The notes under the pieces: model-generated
Seen by the model: only the letters and a program-made list of their open reading frames with translations
Database searches by the model: none
Told to the model about the DNA's origin: nothing
In this document: piece by piece, positions 1-10,800 of the stretch
Layout of the letters: each line of letters begins with the position of its first letter
How positions within the stretch are numbered: the first letter of the stretch is position 1
Source of the DNA: a virus
Taxonomy: Duplodnaviria > Heunggongvirae > Uroviricota > Caudoviricetes
Reading direction: 5' to 3' (one strand)
IMG/VR virus record: IMGVR_UViG_2541047899_000009
Length of the DNA: 47,802 bases
Made by a program: the position numbers and the translations under genes

Positions 1-1284
1 TTACAGACTTCTTGAAGGTTGCGCAGCTGTTACAACACGCGGTTGATCTTCCGCGGCATCTTCCAGTGCACTTAAATCACGGTCTTTCACTTCTGGCATT
101 TTCAGCGCAGAGATTAAACCAATCACTGAATATGCCATGATCATAATGGCGATCGGATACCAGGATTCCGTCATGGTGCAGAAAATACCCGCCAGGATAG
201 GACCAAAACCGGAAGCGATAAGACCACCAATTTCTTTAGAAATGGCCATCCGGGTAAAGCGGTTTTTACAGCCGAACATTTCTGCCATGGTAATGTTTTC
301 CAGAGCAAATAATCCCAGCACCGCACAGTTATGAATCACAATCAGTGCCACCATAATGGTGCTCGGGGCATAGCTTTTATCTACGATGATAGAAAGCATT
401 GGCCATGCCAGCACAATCGCGGAGGTATTCATAATAATATACGGGATCCGGCGACCAATTTTATCGGATAACCAACCAAGGAACGGAATGGTCATAAAGC
501 CGAGAATCGAACTGATCATCAATGCATCTGTTGGAATTGCTTTGTTAAACAATAACGTCTGCACTAAATAGCCTGCAAGGAAAGTCTGAATTAAACCGGA
601 GTTACCAGCCTGACCAAAACGCAGCCCTGTTGCCAGCCAGAAGGATTTGCTCTGGAACATGCTACCAGCAGGTGCAGGTTTTGCTGTCGGTTGGTTGCTG
701 TCGTTAACCTTCTCAAAGACCGGGCTTTCTTTCAGATTCATACGCAACCAGATAGCAAAGACCATCACGACAACGCTCGCCAGGAACGGTATACGCCATC
801 CCCACGCAAGCAGTTCCTCTTTACTGAGAATGAAGAACATAAAGGCCCAGATTGCCGTTGCGCTCAAGGTTCCGCAGTTAGTCCCCATAGCCACAAATGA
901 GGAGATAATTCCGCGCTTACCTTTTGGCGCATATTCCGCCAGCATCGTACCGGCACCGGAAATTTCCGCACCTGCACCCAATCCCTGAATAATACGCAGC
1001 GTCACCAGCAAGATGGGTGCAAAAACACCAATCTGTGCATAGGTCGGTAACACACCAATTAAGGTGGTACAGATCCCCATCATGGTGATGGTAATAAAGA
1101 GTACTTTTTTACGCCCGATTCTGTCGCCCATTTTGCCGAAAATAAATGCTCCGACAATACGCGCCACATAACCTGCACCGTAGGTTCCCATTGCCAGAAT
1201 TAACGCCATTGCCGTTGATGATTCAGGAAAAAATATTTCATGAAACACTAACGCTGCGCCGAGCGAATATAACTGGAAATCCAT
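1..1284 (-). CDS. ydfJ: MFS-family inner-membrane metabolite transporter (YdfJ-like)
   Basis: 427-aa ORF with multiple hydrophobic helices and an MFS-type loop motif (GKMGDRIGRKK); stop codon at window positions 1-3. Symbol from recalled similarity to E. coli YdfJ. Confidence 0.8.
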   Translation of the reverse strand: MDFQLYSLGAALVFHEIFFPESSTAMALILAMGTYGAGYVARIVGAFIFGKMGDRIGRKKVLFITITMMGICTTLIGVLPTYAQIGVFAPILLVTLRIIQGLGAGAEISGAGTMLAEYAPKGKRGIISSFVAMGTNCGTLSATAIWAFMFFILSKEELLAWGWRIPFLASVVVMVFAIWLRMNLKESPVFEKVNDSNQPTAKPAPAGSMFQSKSFWLATGLRFGQAGNSGLIQTFLAGYLVQTLLFNKAIPTDALMISSILGFMTIPFLGWLSDKIGRRIPYIIMNTSAIVLAWPMLSIIVDKSYAPSTIMVALIVIHNCAVLGLFALENITMAEMFGCKNRFTRMAISKEIGGLIASGFGPILAGIFCTMTESWYPIAIMIMAYSVIGLISALKMPEVKDRDLSALEDAAEDQPRVVTAAQPSRSL

Positions 1285-2069
1285 AATTCACAGGTGTTTT
1301 TTCCCATCCAGTGGTTTCCTTGGCGTTTTCTAGGTTTTTTCAGATAGTTGCATTTTTTAAAAAGCATCCTAAGTTCGATCTCAGTGTCTATCTGGGGCCT
1401 ATTTCTGTCCCATATATGCCCCAAAAAAACTCCTCAACAGATAAGTAGTTTTTTCATGGAGTTACGCGTAAAATCAATAACGGCTGGAAATCATTCAATA
1501 CTCGCACTATCGAAAAATTTACCAGCCAACCGCAGCACGTTCTTGCATAAGGCGTGTCTGCGGTTTTTCAACTATTCAGATACATCACTCCCATCACATT
1601 CATTCCTCCGCATCAAAGGCATATAGGCTATATCACCTTGATATTTTTCTTCTTCAGATAAAAACTGTTATCTATGTATACTTTTAAACCCAATCCGTGT
1701 AGAGTCTCTGCATAAGATAGTTTGCAGTTGCCACTTCAGCTTGCGCCATAAACCGCCTGATTTTTGCCGCCATCTGTTAGCATTCCTGTATACCTGAAAC
1801 GACAATGTTTATCTACGAACTTTAAGAACACCCAGGATAAAAATTGTCAACTATATCATATATAACACATTACTAATTCGAGGCTATATGAACAGCATAC
1901 TGATAATCACTTCGCTCCTTATCATATTCAGCATTTTTAGTCATGCTCTAATAAAATTAGGGATTGGCATATCCAATAACCCAGACAAAACCGATGTATA
2001 AGTCAACATATCCTGAATCAGACATACAATATCGCAATGAAAATCAATAATATTTTAAGGAATATATTC

Positions 2070-2303
2070 ATGAAATCAAAAGACACCCTAAAGTGGTTCC
2101 CTGCGCAGCTTCCTGAAGTCAGAATTATCCTAGGGGATGCTGTAGTGGAAGTAGCAAAACAGGGAAGACCTATCAATACCAGAACATTGCTTGATTACAT
2201 TGAAGGAAACATAAAGAAAAAATCATGGCTGGATAACAAAGAATTATTACAAACAGCGATATCAGTTCTTAAAGACAACCAAAATTTAAATGGTAAAATG
2301 TAA
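2070..2303 (+). CDS. ydfK: YdfK/YnaE-family small prophage protein
   Basis: 77-aa product from the internal Met (MKSKDTLKWFPAQLPEV...) of ORF 2037..2303; sits next to pin as in Qin/Rac-type prophages. Confidence 0.6.
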   Translation: MKSKDTLKWFPAQLPEVRIILGDAVVEVAKQGRPINTRTLLDYIEGNIKKKSWLDNKELLQTAISVLKDNQNLNGKM

Positions 2304-2619
2304 TATAATAAACTTACTTTTTTATCATTTTTCCACTTTAACAACATTTTGCTCCACTTTTCCACGACCAAACAACTTGAAATCTGGTTAAAATAACACG
2401 CAACACTATTCTTCTTCCTTGAGTCCGCCCGGAACTCGAAAAACAAACCGAGTTAAAGCCATTTTTCACAAAATCGATTTTGGGTCTCACCAAAATTACG
2501 GGGTTGCATACGCATTCGTTTATTTTCGAACGTGTACATACAAACATGCACAAAAATAATCAAAATTATTTTCTGAGATGCATTATGATATGAACACCAA
2601 TTTCGTATAGAGTCTCACT

Positions 2620-3210
2620 ATGTCTCGAATTTTTGCTTACTGTCGGATATCAACGCTGGATCAGACCACCGAAAATCAACGCCGGGAAATCGAAAGTGCA
2701 GGTTTTAAAATCAAACCTCAGCAAATAATCGAAGAACACATTAGCGGCTCAGCAGCAACCAGTGAGCGTCCTGGTTTTAACCGGTTGCTTGCTCGCCTGA
2801 AATGTGGTGATCAATTGATTGTGACAAAACTGGATCGCCTTGGTTGTAATGCAATGGATATCAGGAAAACAGTGGAACAACTGACCGAAACAGGTATCAG
2901 AGTGCATTGCTTAGCATTGGGGGGCATTGACCTGACCAGTCCAACAGGAAAAATGATGATGCAAGTAATTTCAGCAGTCGCTGAATTTGAACGAGACCTT
3001 TTACTTGAACGCACTCATTCCGGGATAGTAAGAGCCCGGGGCGCAGGGAAACGTTTTGGTCGACCACCTGTGTTAAATGAAGAACAGAAACAGGTGGTAT
3101 TCGAACGGATTAAGTCAGGTGTAAGTATAAGTGCCATTGCCCGGGAATTCAAAACCTCGCGGCAAACCATTTTAAGAGCCAAAGCAAAACTTCAGACACC
3201 TGACATATAA
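2620..3210 (+). CDS. pinQ: Pin-type DNA invertase (serine recombinase, Gin/Hin/Cin/Pin family)
   Basis: 196 aa; N-terminal resolvase catalytic region (YCRISTLDQ with Ser nucleophile), C-terminal HTH ([19 protein letters not shown]); adjacent to tail fibre genes. Confidence 0.9.
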
Positions 3211-3437
3211 AAAATAATCTCGGTGTGAGATGCCTTACGTCTTCCAAGCCCCCTTCCTTGCCGTAAATGGAAAGATACATCTAATTATAGAATTTATATG
3301 TTTTACCCTACGGCAGTGCTAGCCATTCAATATCCTGTGCAGTTGACGTATCAACACGGTTCAGCAACACCCGATACTTCTTCAAGGCTTCCCGCAACGA
3401 GGTTTCTTCCTCCGTTGCATATACAGCTCACCTTTTT

Positions 3438-3731
3438 TCACCCACGATTAACCAACAGCCAGACCAGCAGACACGCCACCACCGGCACAGCAAAATCCAT
3501 CAGGCTTGCCACATCCCACGCACGCGGATCAAAACCGCCCCACCACGGCATATTCATACGCTTGCCATGCCCGAACATTTCAATCCAGCGATATTCTGCC
3601 TGGGTATGTTCACGCGCAATGAAGAACGTACAACCAGCTATCGCCCCGTAAGCCCAGTTTCCGGTAAAAAGACCAACCAGTACCTGCGCAGCCACAGCAC
3701 AAAGTGCATGAAGGAAAGGTGTTATATCCAT
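3438..3731 (-). CDS. hypothetical small membrane protein
   Basis: 97-aa ORF with two hydrophobic segments (LHALCAVAAQVLVGLF, FAVPVVACLLVWLLV), directly downstream of the tail fibre genes on the same strand. Confidence 0.45.
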   Translation of the reverse strand: MDITPFLHALCAVAAQVLVGLFTGNWAYGAIAGCTFFIAREHTQAEYRWIEMFGHGKRMNMPWWGGFDPRAWDVASLMDFAVPVVACLLVWLLVNRG

Positions 3732-3741
3732 TACGCCTCCT

Positions 3742-4446
3742 TTATCCGATATCGCTTCGGGAAACGGATAACAACTTTAATTCTGACTCAAGTTCATCAA
3801 CTCTTTCAGTCAGCTTCTGGATATGGTGAATCAGTGGAACAACCAGACGTTCGTACATTACACCTTCGGCAACAAGGCCATTGCTGGAAATGGTTTCCGG
3901 TGCATCATCTTCGTTGGCTGGTCGCCAGTGAACAAACTGAGGGGCAATTTCTCCAACTTCCTCGGCAATCAATCCATAGAATCCCCAGTCACGCCTGTCA
4001 TTTTCGCATTGCGACCTGTACCACACAGGGCGCATCCTGAAAATGAGATCGGCGTGCTCTGAATCTATCGTCTCTACTGAATGTTTATAGCGGATAGACG
4101 ATGTTGACCGCAGCACAGACGAAATTGCAGGGTCAGGATTAAGATAAAGATTTGCCGCCGCTGTAGTTGTGCCCAATCCCCATAAATAAAACGCTTCACG
4201 GCCAGTCAGCGGGTAAAAATCTCCGCCATAACGACCACTTTCCAGATCGTTCACTTCCACTTTGTTTTTCAGCTTATTATCAACTTCAGTTTTTGTGTAT
4301 CTGGTGCTGATATCCTGCTTTGCACTGGCCATATCAGTCTGAAGCGTTGATACTTTTCCGTTAATAGAGGAAATATCTTCCTTTGCTTTACTAACATCTC
4401 CCTTCAGCGTGGTGATGTCTCCCGGAATTACTGTTGATGTAGCCAT
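3742..4446 (-). CDS. tail-fibre-like protein with C-terminal intramolecular chaperone (peptidase S74-like) domain
   Basis: 234 aa; N-terminal coiled-coil-like segment; C-terminal region (SSIRYKHSVETIDSEHADLIF...GLIAEEVGEIAPQFV...GLVAEGVMYERLVVPLIHHIQKLTERVDELESELK) matches the autoproteolytic chaperone pattern of tail fibres and endosialidases. Confidence 0.6.
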   Translation of the reverse strand: MATSTVIPGDITTLKGDVSKAKEDISSINGKVSTLQTDMASAKQDISTRYTKTEVDNKLKNKVEVNDLESGRYGGDFYPLTGREAFYLWGLGTTTAAANLYLNPDPAISSVLRSTSSIRYKHSVETIDSEHADLIFRMRPVWYRSQCENDRRDWGFYGLIAEEVGEIAPQFVHWRPANEDDAPETISSNGLVAEGVMYERLVVPLIHHIQKLTERVDELESELKLLSVSRSDIG

Positions 4447-4455
4447 TTCTCTACC

Positions 4456-4737
4456 TCACATCCAGCCACGAAGTTGATGCTCAACAGCAACCGCGTATTC
4501 ATCGAATAATGACGATATTTGCGTATCCTTAATGATGCGCACGTTTACAAAATATCCATCTTCCTTAACACATACCGGTTCGCCATCTTCAGTCAGCTCT
4601 CCGGTTTCTTTGTACACGTTACCTATCACATCAATCAGAATATCATCCTGCATCGACTCGTCATTATAATAGCCAATACTTCCCATAAAGGCCGAAAAGT
4701 CGGCCCTGTCGGCAAATTTGAGTGTTAAATCTTTCAT
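4456..4737 (-). CDS. hypothetical protein downstream of side tail fibre
   Basis: 93-aa ORF whose start overlaps the stf stop; acidic, no recognisable motif. Confidence 0.45.
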   Translation of the reverse strand: MKDLTLKFADRADFSAFMGSIGYYNDESMQDDILIDVIGNVYKETGELTEDGEPVCVKEDGYFVNVRIIKDTQISSLFDEYAVAVEHQLRGWM

Positions 4738-7148
4738 TAGATTGACTCCCCCATCTGAGCATCAGTCAATGCCTTGTGCCAAATACGCAGATTTCGAACG
4801 TGTCCAAATAGGTGACGGTTGCCGGATGATGATTGACCACCAATATTAATGAAGCCTCCTGTATATTTGTGTTTTTTATAAGGAGAAACTACCTTAGCAC
4901 CAATATTACCGTTAACCACAACACACAATTCTCGACTTTCTGTGAATCTAAAGCCGATAATGCTTTTTCTCTCTGGTCGTTCTATAACGCTTTTATATTC
5001 TATTTTAGTGCCTTTACCATTTGTAATGATTGCGCGTGCTCCCAAAGATGTATACCCCAAATACATATAACTTTCATCTGCAATTTCAGTTGTATCTCCC
5101 GTAGTGGAAATATTAAGAATACGTGCGCTACCTTCTTTGTTTGGCGATTCATCCCAATTGGTATTAACTTCTGCTAATGAACTAATAGCGGGATTGCACC
5201 AATTTAGAGAAATGGGGACCGTTACAATATCGCTGGCGCGTGTTACAGGGGATGCGCCTGTTATAATAAACGATGAAGCGCACGCCCCACCTTCAACTTG
5301 AGGGGTCGCAATATAAATATAATCATCCGCGCCAGTGCCCACTCCTTTTGCCGGGGCATACTGAACCATTCCACCTATCATATTTTCTGTATCAAGTGCC
5401 TTAATTGTCGCCTCAAAAAAGATCCATTTGCTTGCTTCATCTTTAACAGCCCTTGCAGTAATGCGATTAGCGGCACCACCCGTCTTATCAATAGATAAAT
5501 CTGTCGTATTTAAGTAAGCGTCACCTAAGAATGTGTAGGTAGAACCATCATAGTTTTCAAATCGTAATCGGCATCTTAAATTTGGAGTGCCACTTTGCAC
5601 CCTGCATGATATGGTTACATACTTTTCTCCGCCTGTTACATCAAAACCTTTACTGCCGGAAACGGTTACTATGTTAATCGCTGAAATTTGCCCTACCATT
5701 TCTGGTTTTAATGTAAATTTTGCGTACTGGAATCCGAAATCATCTACACCTGATGCACTTAAGATCATATTTGACGACTTGTTCCATTTAGTCGGATTTG
5801 TTGAATTGATTAGCAGGTTAGTTCTTTGCCCCTCAATAAGCAGGCCATCACGTTCAAATCGTGGCTCGTCAATGGCAGCCTCTGTCAGCACACCAGATTT
5901 ATTAATGTAAGTTGCTTTCGATGCGCGTTTAAACTTTACAATCTTGTAGCCAGGCATTGTTATTTCATCGTCGCCAATAACAATTTTTTTATATGATGGC
6001 GAAAAGCCCGTAATCATATCCAGTGAATCATTAAACGGTATCCACACATCGGGCAACGGCTGCAAAACTTGTTTATACGGCTCCGCTGCCTGGCTTGCAT
6101 ACTCTCTGGCTGCGTCTTCACTTGCTTTAGCTGCTGTCTGGCTTGCTGCCGATGCTTGCGCCGAGTTCGCCGCCGCAGTCTCGCTCGCCTTTGCGTTGGT
6201 TTCACTGGTTTTTGCTGCTTTTTGACTGTTAGCTGATGCAGTGGCAGAAGCAGCCGCCGCGCTTGCAGAACTGGCTGCGGCACTCTCGCTTTGGGCCGCT
6301 GCATCCTGACTGCTTTTCGCCGCAGTTTCACTGGCTTTGGCATTCGTTTCGCTGGTCTTCGCTGCCGTCTGGCTGGACTTTGCGTTAGTTTCACTCGTCT
6401 TCGCAGCTTTCTGGCTGTTAGCCGCAGCAGTTGCTGATCCAGCTGCTGAAGTCGCAGAACCGGCTGCCGCGCTCTCGCTTTGGGCTGCTGCAACCTGGCT
6501 GTTTTTTGCCGCAGTTTCACTGGCTTTGGCATTCGTTTCGCTGGTTTTCGCTGCCGTCTGGCTGGACTTTGCGTTGGTTTCGCTCGTCTTTGCGGCTGTC
6601 TCGCTATTTTTCGCGTTGGTTTCTGATTTTTTGGCTGCTGTCGCGGAGTTTGCCGATGCAGTCTTTGAGGTCGCTGCCGCCTGTGCACTATTAGCTGCAT
6701 TCGTTTCTGAGGTTTTCGCCGCGTTCTTTGATGATGCCGCTGCAGTTTCGGATTTCTTTGCCGCCGCTGCGCTCTGAGAGGCGGCTTCGGCGTTGCGTGC
6801 CACTTCTTCCACCATTGCCTCAAAACGACGCAATGCCTCCGGCATGACATCATCTTCCGTCATGGCACCGAGAAAATCATTCAGCGTACCTGGTCTGGAG
6901 CCTTCATAGACGGTAATGGTCCCGGCATGTGAAGGCGGAAAACCTTCAACCAGCAGGGTGACGCTGTACTGGCCATACTCAACATCCATGCTGTAACGTC
7001 CGGCTTCATCCGGATTTTCAGAAGCCACCGTGTTCACCAGTACCGTGGTGCTGTTACGCTTTGCCTTCAGTTGAATAGTGCAGTTCTGTATTGGTTTTCC
7101 CGCACCATCTTTCAGCACACCTGAGATTTTTACTGCTGCCATATCCAC
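4737..7148 (-). CDS. stf: side tail fibre protein (lambda Stf-like N-terminus, Ala/Ser/Thr-rich repeat shaft, lectin/jelly-roll-like C-terminal domain)
   Basis: 803 aa; N-terminus (AVKISGVLKDGAGKPIQNCTIQLKAKRNSTTVLVNTV...YSMDVEYGQYSVTLLVEGFPPSHAGTITVYE) closely matches recalled lambda Stf; long (AAKTSETNAK)n-type repeats follow. Confidence 0.9.
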   Translation of the reverse strand: MDMAAVKISGVLKDGAGKPIQNCTIQLKAKRNSTTVLVNTVASENPDEAGRYSMDVEYGQYSVTLLVEGFPPSHAGTITVYEGSRPGTLNDFLGAMTEDDVMPEALRRFEAMVEEVARNAEAASQSAAAAKKSETAAASSKNAAKTSETNAANSAQAAATSKTASANSATAAKKSETNAKNSETAAKTSETNAKSSQTAAKTSETNAKASETAAKNSQVAAAQSESAAAGSATSAAGSATAAANSQKAAKTSETNAKSSQTAAKTSETNAKASETAAKSSQDAAAQSESAAASSASAAAASATASANSQKAAKTSETNAKASETAAANSAQASAASQTAAKASEDAAREYASQAAEPYKQVLQPLPDVWIPFNDSLDMITGFSPSYKKIVIGDDEITMPGYKIVKFKRASKATYINKSGVLTEAAIDEPRFERDGLLIEGQRTNLLINSTNPTKWNKSSNMILSASGVDDFGFQYAKFTLKPEMVGQISAINIVTVSGSKGFDVTGGEKYVTISCRVQSGTPNLRCRLRFENYDGSTYTFLGDAYLNTTDLSIDKTGGAANRITARAVKDEASKWIFFEATIKALDTENMIGGMVQYAPAKGVGTGADDYIYIATPQVEGGACASSFIITGASPVTRASDIVTVPISLNWCNPAISSLAEVNTNWDESPNKEGSARILNISTTGDTTEIADESYMYLGYTSLGARAIITNGKGTKIEYKSVIERPERKSIIGFRFTESRELCVVVNGNIGAKVVSPYKKHKYTGGFINIGGQSSSGNRHLFGHVRNLRIWHKALTDAQMGESI
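6120..6720. repeat. tandem direct repeats (about 189-bp unit, 2 full copies plus partial copies) inside stf
   Basis: Near-identical stretches beginning around 6322 and 6511 (gcagtttcactggctttggcattcgtttcgctggt...); they encode the repeated AAKTSETNAKSSQTAAKTSETNAKASETAAK blocks. Confidence 0.8.
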
Positions 7149-7153
7149 TCCAC

Positions 7154-7180
7154 AAAAAAGCCCGCCTGAACCGGCGGGCT
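7154..7180 (-). terminator. rho-independent terminator downstream of lom
   Basis: GC-rich hairpin agcccgcc-tgaacc-ggcgggct followed on the minus strand by a T6 tract. Confidence 0.6.
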
Positions 7181-7206
7181 GTCATAACACTGTGTTACCT
7201 GGCTAA

Positions 7207-7806
7207 TCAGAATTTATAACCGACACCCACGATGAAACCGTCAGTGCGCCAGTCACCACTGCCGGAGCCTTCATAAGCAATATCAATGGCCACGGATTCG
7301 GTCGGGTTAAACTGCACGCCAGCTCCCCACGCCAGAGACGTGTTGCTGTGGCGACCGTCATCACTTCCGGTCAGCACATCGTGCGTTTTCCCCTTATTGT
7401 CAGTTACGCGGAGATAATCCCCGGAAAAAGTCGACACACGGCTGTAAGCCATACCCGCCATCGCATACGCGCTGAACCATTCATTCACGCGCACAGACGG
7501 CCCCACCATCACGCTGAACCAGCGGTTACGCACGGAATCTTCATGCCAGCGGGTATTGCTGTAACGGGTAAGCTGGCGATTCTTGTCTCCTGCATAGCTG
7601 AATGACGTCACCAGCCCCAGTGTGTCCGTAAACTCATAACGGTATTTCACGTTAACCCCGTTAAGATCATCGCTGCCGGGAACGTTCGTCGAGGCATGAA
7701 GATACCCCGCGCTCAGCGTGGACTGATGTTCAGATGCCCATGCAGGCGCACCGGATACGGACAGACAGATGGCTGCGGACAAAATGGCTGCACAAACTTT
7801 ACGCAT
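7207..7806 (-). CDS. lom: Lom (Ail/Lom-family outer-membrane beta-barrel protein)
   Basis: 199 aa with signal peptide ([24 protein letters not shown]), alternating beta-strand pattern and C-terminal aromatic residue (GYKF); lies between J and stf as in lambda. Confidence 0.9.
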
Positions 7807-7830
7807 AATTACCTCTCGCTTTTCTGCAAT

Positions 7831-7854
7831 AAAAAAGGCGCCATTTCTGGCGCC
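7831..7854 (-). terminator. rho-independent terminator downstream of J
   Basis: Hairpin ggcgcc-atttct-ggcgcc followed on the minus strand by a T-tract (plus-strand aaaaaa). Confidence 0.55.
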
Positions 7855-7873
7855 CGTATATGGGTTATAAAAT

Positions 7874-10800
7874 TCAGCTGATACTGATGCCTGCGGTGGC
7901 TTTCTTCATCACCACAACCAGCAAATCGCTGATACTTGCTGTGGGATACCAGTCATTTACCAGCCATGCTGACACCGAAAACTCCAGCGTCATGTGACCG
8001 TGACCGGCAGGCATATCAATAACGCCACTGTAAATCAGCGTATTATCCAGCGCGGTACGGTTATAAATTTCAGCACCGTTTTTCCGCACTATCAGACGGC
8101 ATGAGGAGTAAATATCAGTATGCTCTCTCTCATGTTTAGCGCCGCTGAATGCCACCGCCGGAATAACAATCTGCCGGTCAAACGGCTGATCGTCATAAAC
8201 CCTGACGGTAATGGTCCCTGATGGCCACCGCTCCGGTGCACGGGAGTCCCGGGGGAAAGCTTTGCCCACTGTTTTAACGAGATCGCCTTCAATCTGGTTC
8301 GCGGACAGTTTTCCCAGAACCCGACAGTTCTCGTTAATCGTGACGTTGTTGAGCGTCCCGGAGTTCGCATTCACGTTACCGCTGATATCGGCATTTTTCG
8401 CCGTCAGCCGCCCATCCGGTGTCAGGGAAAATGCCGGAGGATTACCGCCGCTGGTAATGGTGGGGGCCGTCAGGCGTTTCAGGAACACGTCGTTCATGAA
8501 TATCTGGTTGCCCTGCGCCACAAACATCGGCGTTTCATTCCCGTTTGCCGGGTCAATAAACGCGATACGATTGGCGGCAACCAGAAACTGACTCAGTTTG
8601 CCTTCCTCTGTATCCTCCATACTGAGGCCAATACCCGCGACATAATGTTTGCCGTCTTTGGTCTGCTCAATTTTGACGCCCCACATGGCATTCCACTTAT
8701 CACTGGCGTCCTTCCACTCTTTCGAAAACTCCTCCAGTCTGCTGGCGTTATCCTCCGTCAGCTCGACTTTTTCCAGCAGCTCCTTGCCGAGATGGGATTC
8801 GGTTATCTGGCCTTTGAAAAAATCCAGGTAACCTTCCGCATCATCGCTCGCCCGACCAACAGCCTCCACGAATGCCGATTTGCCGACGGTGTTCACACTG
8901 CGGATATAAAAGTAATAATCACGACCCGGTTTGATATTGATACTGGCGGCTATCCAGTACAGCCCCGTGCCAAGGTAGCGGGCTGTGGTTTCAACCTGCC
9001 TGATATCCGCAATCCGTTTTTCCGAGAACCAGAACTCAAACTGTACCGTCGGGTCATAAACCGCAAGATGTGGCGTGGCGGTTATCTGAAAATAGCCCGG
9101 TGTCAGCTCAATCCGAGACGGCGCTGCCGGTGCGGCAATCCGGAACGATACCGATGCCGGATCGCCCTGCAGCCCCCACGCATTTACCGCCCGGACCGTC
9201 AGCATGTAACGCCCCAGCGCCAGTTGCGTGAAGCGGTATGTGGTTTCCGTCGTCCGGGCCGTGCTGACCAGCCGCTCACTGCCGTCATCCGCTGCCACGG
9301 TCAGGCGAAGCAGGAAGCTCACGCCCTTCACCACCTTCGGCGTGTCCCAGCGGGCCAGCACCTGATATTCCCCGCTGTCTGCGGTGACTTCGGCAGTCAG
9401 GTGCTGCACCGCTGGCGGCGTGACACCATTCACCGTGCCGCTCTGGTCGCCGTCAAAGTGCGCCCCGTTATCCACGATGGCCTCTTTCTCCGGTACATGC
9501 TGCACGGCAGTGATGGCATACGTGCCGTCGTCGTTCTCACGGATACTCACGCAGCGGAACAGGCGCTGGCGCAGCGTCGGCAACTTCAGCCCCCACACGC
9601 TGTATTCAGCAACGCCGTCAGGAACACGGCTCACTTTCACCTTCACGCCGTCGGTGACGGACTGGACCTCCACGCTGACCGGATTACCCTGCCCGTCAAC
9701 CAGGCTTATCAGCGTGGTGCCGGAGGATGGCAGCGTGATTTCACGGTCGAGCGTCAGCGTCCGGGTCTGGCTTTTCACCGCCAGCACGCGACCACCGATG
9801 CTGATACCGGCATAGTCATCATCGCAGATTTCAATAACATCGCCCGGCACATGGCGAAGCCCTTCTGCGCCCACGCTGAAATCCACGGTCTGCGTTTCCA
9901 GCAGTTCCGTTTTAATCAGCCACAGCCCGGCTCGGTGTGCCTGCCCCCGACTGGTACAACCAAAGGCATCCATCTTCGTGACATTACGACCGTAACGGGC
10001 AATGGCCTGCGTATCTTCAACAAGCTCTGTCGCCGTCTCCCAGCCGTTATCCGGGTCAATCCAGTTCACCTCAACGGCATTATGGCGGTCCTTCAGGGCG
10101 CTGAAGCTGTAGCGGAACGGCGCGCCATCATCCGGCATCACCACATTACTGCGGTTATAGGTCCACACCTTATCCGACGGTCGGTCCTGCACGAACGTCA
10201 GCGTCTGCCCGTTCCATACCGGCATACAGCGCATCGCCGAGCAGAAATCACTGAGCACATCCCACGCCTTGCGCTGTGTGGTCAGGTAAGCGTTACAGGT
10301 GATGCGCGGCTCCGTGCCGCCAAAGCCGTCCGGCACCGACTGGTCGCAATTCTGGCCGATGACATACAGCGCCCATTTATCCACATCCGCCGCACCAAGA
10401 CGTTTCCCCATGCCGTAGCGCGGATGGGTCAGCATATCCCACAGACACCAGGCCATGTTGTTGCTGTATGCCGGTTTTAACGTTCCGTCCCAGATACCGC
10501 TGTATTGCCGCGTCTGCGGGTTATAGTTCGACGGCACCTGCAGAATGCGCCCGCGAAGATGATAATTACGGCTCACCTGCTGGCTGCCGAACTGCTCCGA
10601 GTCCACCTGCACGCCAACCAGTGCCGTGTTCGGGTAGCACTGTTTCACATCGATGATTTCGGTGTATGACGACCAGAGCGTTTTGTTCTGCAGTTGGTCT
10701 GTGGTGCTGTCCGGCGTCATCCTGCGCATCCGGATATTGAACGGGCGCGGCGGCAGGTTACCCACCACCACCGAGGCCAGATACTGTGAGGTGGTTTTGC

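Follow-up and report, generated by a model that had tools for sequence, protein, structure and literature searches.

Why does a gene annotated as a Pin-type invertase lie beside tail-fibre genes when no invertible fibre cassette accompanies it? This question is raised by the pin locus of a 47,802-nucleotide stretch of viral DNA (Caudoviricetes; IMG/VR record IMGVR_UViG_2541047899_000009; hereafter the window, which means the whole stretch analysed), in which a few small open reading frames (ORFs) separate pin from the side tail fibre gene stf. The initial annotation, made from the sequence alone, described pin as convergent with stf and the small ORFs between them as lying all on the stf strand, and both descriptions agree with the ORF calls and the annotation (pin on the plus strand, stf on the minus strand). 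It also saw no inverted alternative fibre cassette, and none was found across the 47.8 kb. From this, it was proposed that either pin is orphaned or its flip sites are positioned unusually. The analysis reported here makes it highly probable that the gene has a different history, namely that pin is the stranded resolvase gene (tnpR) of a small Tn3-family transposon, lodged in the ends of Rac/Qin-type prophages, and not a fibre-flipping invertase. The absence of an invertible cassette is then expected, because pin would be a leftover transposon resolvase gene.

The pin product belongs to the same fold class as the Fis-dependent invertases Hin, Gin, Cin and PinE, which act at hix, gix, cix and pix sites; like them, it is a small serine recombinase with a C-terminal helix-turn-helix, phage-borne and encoded near tail-fibre genes. 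In contrast to these systems, pin is accompanied by neither 26-bp crossover sites nor an invertible segment nor alternative fibre ends. The product is 100% identical to PinR and 99% identical to PinQ of Escherichia coli K-12, and it shares 36–39% identity with the phage invertases (P1, D6, HK225 and others). The mutual identity expected within the invertase group is also lacking, since PinE of prophage e14 and Gin are 78% identical to each other, whereas the pin product is only 39% identical to PinE. Additionally, the recombinase reached the cut-off of no NCBIfam model, and PHROGs labels it "DNA invertase".

A protein search of a large collection retrieved thousands of relatives of the pin product, and those at 78–84% identity were found on plasmids and chromosomes of Escherichia, Salmonella, Klebsiella, Hafnia, Providencia, Pectobacterium and Shewanella. 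Their contexts were uniform: a divergent gene for a 994-amino-acid transposase, bearing DUF4158 and DDE_Tnp_Tn3 domains, lies exactly 160 bp upstream, as verified in E. coli plasmids, Hafnia, Shewanella, Pectobacterium and Klebsiella. Against NF033527, the Tn3 transposase model of NCBIfam, this transposase reaches 1193 bits (cut-off 500). The minimal element spans 3,815 bp and consists of an inverted repeat, tnpA, res, tnpR and a second inverted repeat; intact copies carry identical 38-bp terminal repeats at both ends (GGGGTCCGCTTGGAAAACGGAAAATATCCCACGCTAAG), and perfect 5-bp target duplications flank two of them, TAATA in one (L009) and TTTAA in a Shewanella copy (L019). Because of the divergent Tn3 transposase, the identical terminal repeats and the target duplications, these relatives are regarded as the resolvases of an active Tn3-family transposon. 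Thus, the closest relatives of pin are tnpR genes divergent from a Tn3-family transposase gene inside terminal inverted repeats, and the premise of the initial annotation, that pin encodes a Pin/Gin/Cin-type invertase in need of a fibre cassette, fails on identities of 39% to PinE and 78–84% to TnpR.

Two further features of this element were observed. The Shewanella baltica genome CP002811 holds two 3.8-kb copies (L019 and L020) with exactly the terminal repeats found in the E. coli plasmid copies, which points to a recent spread of the element across orders. On a colicin/microcin plasmid contig (L008, 5900-6637), a res-tnpR-inverted repeat module of the same transposon occurs with no transposase gene; its subsites are nearly intact, it has Arg at the catalytic position and it adjoins a MazE/PemK toxin–antitoxin pair, and it may act as a plasmid dimer-resolution system. 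Such stand-alone plasmid modules resemble the pin locus in having kept tnpR, the upstream sites and the right inverted repeat after loss of tnpA. They differ from it in that the plasmid module keeps a near-complete subsite I, intact subsites II and III and the catalytic Arg, whereas the prophage copy does not.

The kinship with the transposon is not confined to the coding sequence. DNA homology, at about 82% by BLAST, runs from 2524 to approximately 3253 of the window and includes the promoter, subsite III and the terminal repeat; the gene has the same length as in the 3.8-kb transposon, and the repeat follows the stop codon at an equal distance. The homology ends on the right at the tip of the terminal repeat, which is also where similarity among the transposon copies breaks off. 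When seven of these copies were aligned, three conserved blocks emerged between tnpA and tnpR: block 1 reads TGACCGAAA N8 TTTCGKACA, block 2 reads TGTCCGAAA N14 TTTCGKAYA, and block 3 lies just before tnpR, with a TATAAT hexamer between blocks 2 and 3. When these blocks are equated, by analogy only, with res subsites I, II and III, the homologous region of the window (2507-2609) retains subsite III, together with a subsite I that lacks its left half and a subsite II devoid of both cores (Table 1). The sequence to the left of the right half of subsite I is unrelated to the transposon. Neither a trace of tnpA (best tblastn E-value 0.5) nor a second terminal repeat was found in the window, so that, compared with the 3.8-kb element, the locus lacks the transposase gene and the left repeat and represents only a remnant, in which a catalytic Arg has additionally been replaced by Cys.

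The reverse direction of transfer, in which transposons would have captured a phage gene, was rejected, since the prophage copy bears the transposon-specific terminal repeat and res, and the transposon copies vary and occur in different genera, in contrast to the prophage alleles, a narrow derived group that has gained extra substitutions. An empty site was sought in phages without pin, including lambda; they share only the coding part of tfa, from approximately 3302-3322 onward, which leaves the 3254-3307 junction with no defined insertion point or target duplication. An apparent pin-less junction in O157:H7 was also dismissed as an empty site, since it is the stub of a degraded prophage beside ssrA. 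In one genome (NZ_AP045783.1, 2411431-2411939), the match running from ydfK to res breaks at window position 2548, within the subsite II remnant, and a second match lies elsewhere in the record; an insertion or rearrangement may have occurred there.

The catalytic site of the pin product is altered as well. In alignments to Gin and to the gamma-delta resolvase, the motif KLDRLGR reads KLDRLGC, and the resulting Cys76 aligns with R71 of gamma-delta and with the equivalent Arg of Gin. Of the catalytic set (Y6, R8, S10, D36, R68 and R71 in Tn3 numbering), this is the residue that is missing; Y7, R9, S11, E39 and R73 are present in the pin product, and the D36 position is occupied by E in the transposon copies too. 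Arg stands at the R71 position in every transposon relative examined and in 114 of the 120 closest cluster representatives; Cys was found in five, all of them prophage alleles, and in every prophage allele seen. A previous study of Tn3 resolvase showed that the R71A and R71K substitutions leave DNA binding intact but abolish recombination and make single-strand cleavage about 1000-fold slower (PMC2794168). By comparison of the sequences, Cys76 should therefore strongly reduce strand cleavage.

The window was also searched for the sites that an invertase would use. The initial annotation had found no matching pair of inverted repeats by eye and had called for a search for 26-bp pairs of the gix/hix/pix type; that search was carried out, and no such pair was found anywhere in the window. 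The 26-bp consensus (TTNTCNNAAACCNNGGTTTNNGANAA) gave no match at three or fewer mismatches, half-sites occurred at the chance rate (15 found, 14 expected), and the best 26-mer agreed with 13 of the 18 specified consensus positions, the mean best score in shuffled sequence being 13.1. The two e14 pix sequences likewise retrieved nothing above chance, and candidate canonical crossover sites were thus set aside by all three routes. Inverted repeats within 1300-8000 were short and of low identity (the longest 25 nucleotides with 72% complementarity), none exceeding chance, although the same repeat finder recovered the e14 pixL and pixR pair in K-12 as a positive control. Accordingly, no pair of inverted sites flanks a segment adjoining pin, and no segment with oppositely oriented fibre ends exists, the ORFs lying on one strand with no long inverted repeats around them. 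As regards canonical invertase sites, the complete absence that the initial annotation had named as refuting its proposal is what was found. Sites of the transposon type, paired with the spacing of site I (N8) or site II (N14), were also absent from the window, and the suggestion of unusually positioned flip sites found no support. The half-site-like "aaaccgag" reported about 170 bp upstream of pin does exist, inside a 6-bp inverted repeat (AACTCG N10 CGAGTT), but is not a half-site, since its surrounding 26-mer agrees with the consensus at only 7 of 18 positions. The idea of an orphaned pin survives in part: no recombination substrate adjoins the gene, yet it is not a cassette-type invertase that lost one.

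The arrangement is known and very common. Among 5426 complete E. coli genomes, the 2.1-kb ynfT-ydfK-pin-tfa block was collinear in 2684, and the ydfK–pin junction was collinear in 2754 of the 2875 genomes with any of it, the remainder being mostly plasmid copies of the transposon; in no surveyed genome was the segment seen in the opposite orientation. In agreement, a published BLAST survey reported inversions only in e14, and not in Rac or Qin (PMC12529663). K-12 itself has the same neighbours around pinR (b1374, Rac) and pinQ (b1545, Qin), that is, ynfT or ynaM, ydfK or ynaE, pin, and convergent tfa and stf: Rac carries stfR and tfaR followed by convergent pinR, ynaE and ynaM, and Qin carries ynfT, ydfK and pinQ followed by convergent tfaQ and stfQ, with no cassette in either. 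The gene and the lack of a cassette are therefore ordinary features of K-12. The Qin copy of K-12 occupies the same chromosomal site as the window copy, ydfJ. The window differs from both K-12 loci in that the C-terminus of stf and tfa are replaced by a fibre module (genes for 803, 93, 234 and 97 amino acids), leaving a 111-bp tfa stub. The free phage HannyBb presents the order int, attachment region, ynfT, ydfK, pin and fibre genes. As a side observation, the window prophage sits at the Qin site, yet its recombinase is PinR (R3 and V159, versus Q3 and A159 in PinQ), and across strains the names PinQ and PinR do not track the two loci.

Taken as a transposon remnant, the region from about 2524 to 3253 would be the right part of a Tn3-type element, comprising half of subsite I, a decayed subsite II, the promoter with subsite III, tnpR and the right repeat, with the transposase gene and the left end gone from the fragment. 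The transposon would have landed in a non-essential region between the tail-fibre genes or tfa and the attachment site, so that pin would lie close to stf and tfa only because the element happened to insert there, and an invertible fibre cassette would neither exist nor ever have belonged to it. The fibre neighbours represent a one-directional module that replaced the original end of stf and tfa; the remaining tfa stub shows that the exchange took place by recombination inside tfa. Recombination in cis would not be expected in the prophage, given one decayed res and no partner site. The pin product probably binds the promoter-proximal subsite III and represses its own synthesis, as Tn3-family resolvases do, and any recombination that it performs would occur in trans, at sites elsewhere, as reported for the P segment of e14.

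Several points weigh against regarding pin as such a remnant. The assignment of blocks 1 to 3 to res subsites is drawn by analogy with Tn3 and gamma-delta, as are the probable function of subsite III and the promoter and the autoregulation, and what is left of the terminal repeat matches the intact one at only about 70% identity. The conservation of the gene speaks for a function that has been kept, not for an inert relic. A second family of prophage alleles exists at the same ydfJ site (L016 and L027; about 100 complete genomes), with 85% protein identity; it shares with the first family Cys76, the decayed res and the repeat remnant, and despite the 15% protein difference both families keep an intact ORF and Cys76, which is thus old and retained. 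Between the two families, synonymous divergence (dS) was 0.21 and the ratio of non-synonymous to synonymous divergence (dN/dS) was 0.38, below the neutral expectation (binomial p = 0.001). Between transposon lineages, synonymous sites were saturated and dN was only 0.08, and non-synonymous change in the prophage lineage was about 3.7 times that of the sister transposon lineage (0.059 versus 0.016; three-point branch lengths on dN). Because dN/dS lies below neutral and non-synonymous change is faster, the constraint on pin appears to be relaxed but present, and the protein probably still does something. Finally, a 2025 study by Kirigo et al. reported that overproduced PinQ inverts the 1797-bp P segment of e14, the resulting chimeric StfE2 blocking adsorption of T2; by quantitative PCR, the P inversion reached 88% with PinQ, compared with about 30% in the wild type and 49% with PinE, and deletion of pinQ sensitised cells to T2 (PMC12529663). 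Given this report, the Cys76 protein may be competent on foreign sites.

A possible, though rather doubtful, way to accommodate these points is that PinQ and PinR are domesticated resolvases, maintained in lambdoid phages by purifying selection after the loss of res, the transposase and a catalytic arginine, with a role other than recombination in cis, as DNA-binding regulators or as partners or modulators that bias Pin-type invertases elsewhere in the cell. If true, this would explain both the reported anti-T2 effect and the skew of the P orientation to 88%.

A stronger claim, which is unlikely, is that PinQ and PinR are active invertases working in trans, flipping pix sites in another prophage (the e14 P segment) to produce a chimeric fibre that blocks T2. 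Besides the quantitative PCR values, it is favoured by the finding that the T2 survivors overproducing PinQ carried the P inversion and that the effect disappears in strains deleted for stfP, stfE or e14 (PMC12529663). Additionally, pix binding by the pin product is plausible because, in a by-eye comparison, the transposon half-site of site I (TGTCCGAAACC) resembles the pix half-site TCTCCCAAACC; a second pix half-site, TCTCGAAAACC, shows a similar likeness. On the other hand, pinE and pinE pinQ mutants have a locked P segment although pinR is present (and pinQ too in the single mutant) (PMC12529663), a reversible invertase should settle near 50% rather than at 88%, Cys replaces a catalytic Arg and no pix-like site occurs in the window. 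Moreover, the full P segment was found in 284 of the 5426 genomes, as against about 2750 with pin, and E. coli KE55, the best-matching strain (100% identity over 1300-7200 of the window), has iraM directly beside an intact icd and hence no e14 there (this concerns the icd site only). Owing to this imbalance and to the absence of e14 from the icd site of KE55, flipping of the P segment cannot be the general role of the gene.

That sites are present near pin but act in an unusual way, through inversion or deletion nearby (ynfT–ydfK or the promoter), dimer resolution via res or recombination between Rac and Qin, is highly improbable. Subsite III and half of subsite I do survive, pin is under some purifying selection and a dimer-resolution role is plausible for the transposase-less plasmid module described above. 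Nevertheless, no inverted repeats exceed chance, transposon-type sites are not paired at either spacing, about 2,700 genomes share the same junction order, no flipped arrangement having been seen, the published survey places inversions in e14 and not in Rac or Qin (PMC12529663), and subsite II, which Tn3-type resolvases need for synapsis, has lost both cores. Least credible of all, and already contradicted, is the orphan proposed by the initial annotation, a true Pin/Gin/Cin-family invertase whose fibre segment was deleted: the gene name, the neighbourhood of stf and the tfa stub and the PHROGs label speak for it, but its product shares 39% with PinE where the family shares 78% and reaches 83% identity with transposon resolvases, the gene lies between remnants of a transposon res and terminal repeat, and in true systems, e14 for example, the invertase gene has the invertible segment directly at its 5′ end, a place that ydfK occupies at pin, with the fibre genes beyond the 3′ end.

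The transposon reading of pin bears on nomenclature. The names pinQ and pinR and the annotation "DNA invertase from lambdoid prophage Rac" would be misleading, and this label spreads to plasmid resolvases through automated annotation. Together, an origin from tnpR and Cys76 predict that the effect of PinQ on the P segment depends either on PinE or on whatever activity the crippled enzyme retains. The study of PinQ mentions neither resolvase ancestry nor the catalytic residues (PMC12529663), and no published link of pinQ or pinR to the transposon, to res decay or to the Arg-to-Cys change was found in a literature search of incomplete coverage, so that priority is not claimed. The transposon origin, the decayed res and the substitution are best seen as corrections to the description of pinQ and pinR, not as a new kind of system.

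Another observation concerns the left edge of the fragment. Compared with strain 64.1 (L027), which carries the second allele family at the same ydfJ site, the window diverges by about 1% over 1285-2544 (12 differences) and by about 10% from 2545 onward. This jump, located within 2457-2545, marks the left edge of the transposon-derived DNA in the region of res subsite I and is a mosaic boundary; its coincidence with an old crossover site may be fortuitous or may record an earlier site-specific exchange.

The coordinates of all features are collected in Table 1. The window opens inside the host gene ydfJ, which is cut at 1284, and continues into a lambdoid prophage at the Qin attachment site that is otherwise full length; after the truncated ydfJ, the gene order is ynfT, ydfK, pin, the tfa stub, the ORFs of 97, 234 and 93 amino acids, stf, lom and J. 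The region 1300-7200 is nearly unchanged in 112 complete genomes. An Rfam scan of 1-8000 detected no RNA family, and a scan of 2250-3450 for promoters and terminators gave only weak consensus matches and no terminator.

Table 1. Positions and properties of the features of the pin locus and its surroundings (numbering of the window).
Feature	Position	Strand	Description
ydfJ′	1..1284	-	Host major facilitator superfamily transporter gene, truncated by the prophage, N-terminus missing (PGAP); marks the Qin attachment site; same layout in K-12
ydfK	2070..2303	+	Cold-shock protein gene; with upstream ynfT forms the prophage-end block that always accompanies pin
"aaaccgag" motif	2445..2452	+	Motif of the initial annotation; inside AACTCG N10 CGAGTT
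Putative res subsite I remnant	2507..2532	+	Presumed crossover site; right half TTTCGAACG (2524-2532) kept, left half (2507-2515) unrecognisable
Putative res subsite II remnant	2547..2578	+	TGCACAAAA N14 TTTCTGAGA; invariant CG/CG cores of both half-sites lost
Likely pin promoter –10	2584..2589	+	TATGAT (TATAAT in the transposons); from the seven-copy alignment
Putative res subsite III	2591..2609	+	TGAACACCAATTTCGTATA; nearly intact
pin (pinQ/pinR allele)	2620..3210	+	Small serine recombinase of 196 amino acids; Resolvase and HTH_7 domains; very probably derived from a Tn3-family tnpR
pin codon 76	2845..2847	+	TGT (Cys) at the position of catalytic Arg71 of Tn3/gamma-delta; CGT (Arg) in the transposon copies
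Right terminal inverted repeat, decayed	3219..3253	-	Minus-strand reading GGGGGCTTGGAAGACGTAAGGCATCTCACACCGAG; transposon homology stops at its tip
tfa C-terminal stub	3308..3418	-	111 bp; PGAP pseudogene; homology to lambda tfa over 3322-3419
97-amino-acid ORF	3438..3731	-	phrog_1443, function unknown; hydrophobic sequence; part of the swapped-in fibre module
234-amino-acid fibre-tip-like protein	3742..4446	-	Peptidase_S74 intramolecular chaperone domain; corresponds to positions 1147-1384 of the 1385-position phrog_3299
93-amino-acid ORF	4456..4737	-	phrog_1361, function unknown
stf	4737..7148	-	Side tail fibre of 803 amino acids; full length versus phrog_1419

In the fibre module, no gene is duplicated in inverse orientation. 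PGAP flags stf as a pseudogene with a missing C-terminus; its product matches phrog_1419 from end to end (residues 4-803 against positions 1-793 of 793), and stf is probably complete, differing in its C-terminal domain. The 234-amino-acid ORF resembles only the C-terminal tip of a long fibre, yet it stands alone after stf and the 93-amino-acid ORF, and in HannyBb (L018, 5575-6606) the gene at its place encodes 343 amino acids; it could be either a separate fibre-tip protein or a truncated gene. The central region of stf (6000-6850) consists of long repeats rich in Ala, Ser and Thr, of the KTSETNAK type, which give rise to several long spurious ORFs in alternative frames and on the opposite strand (among them 279 amino acids at 6014-6853 and 146 at 6337-6777).

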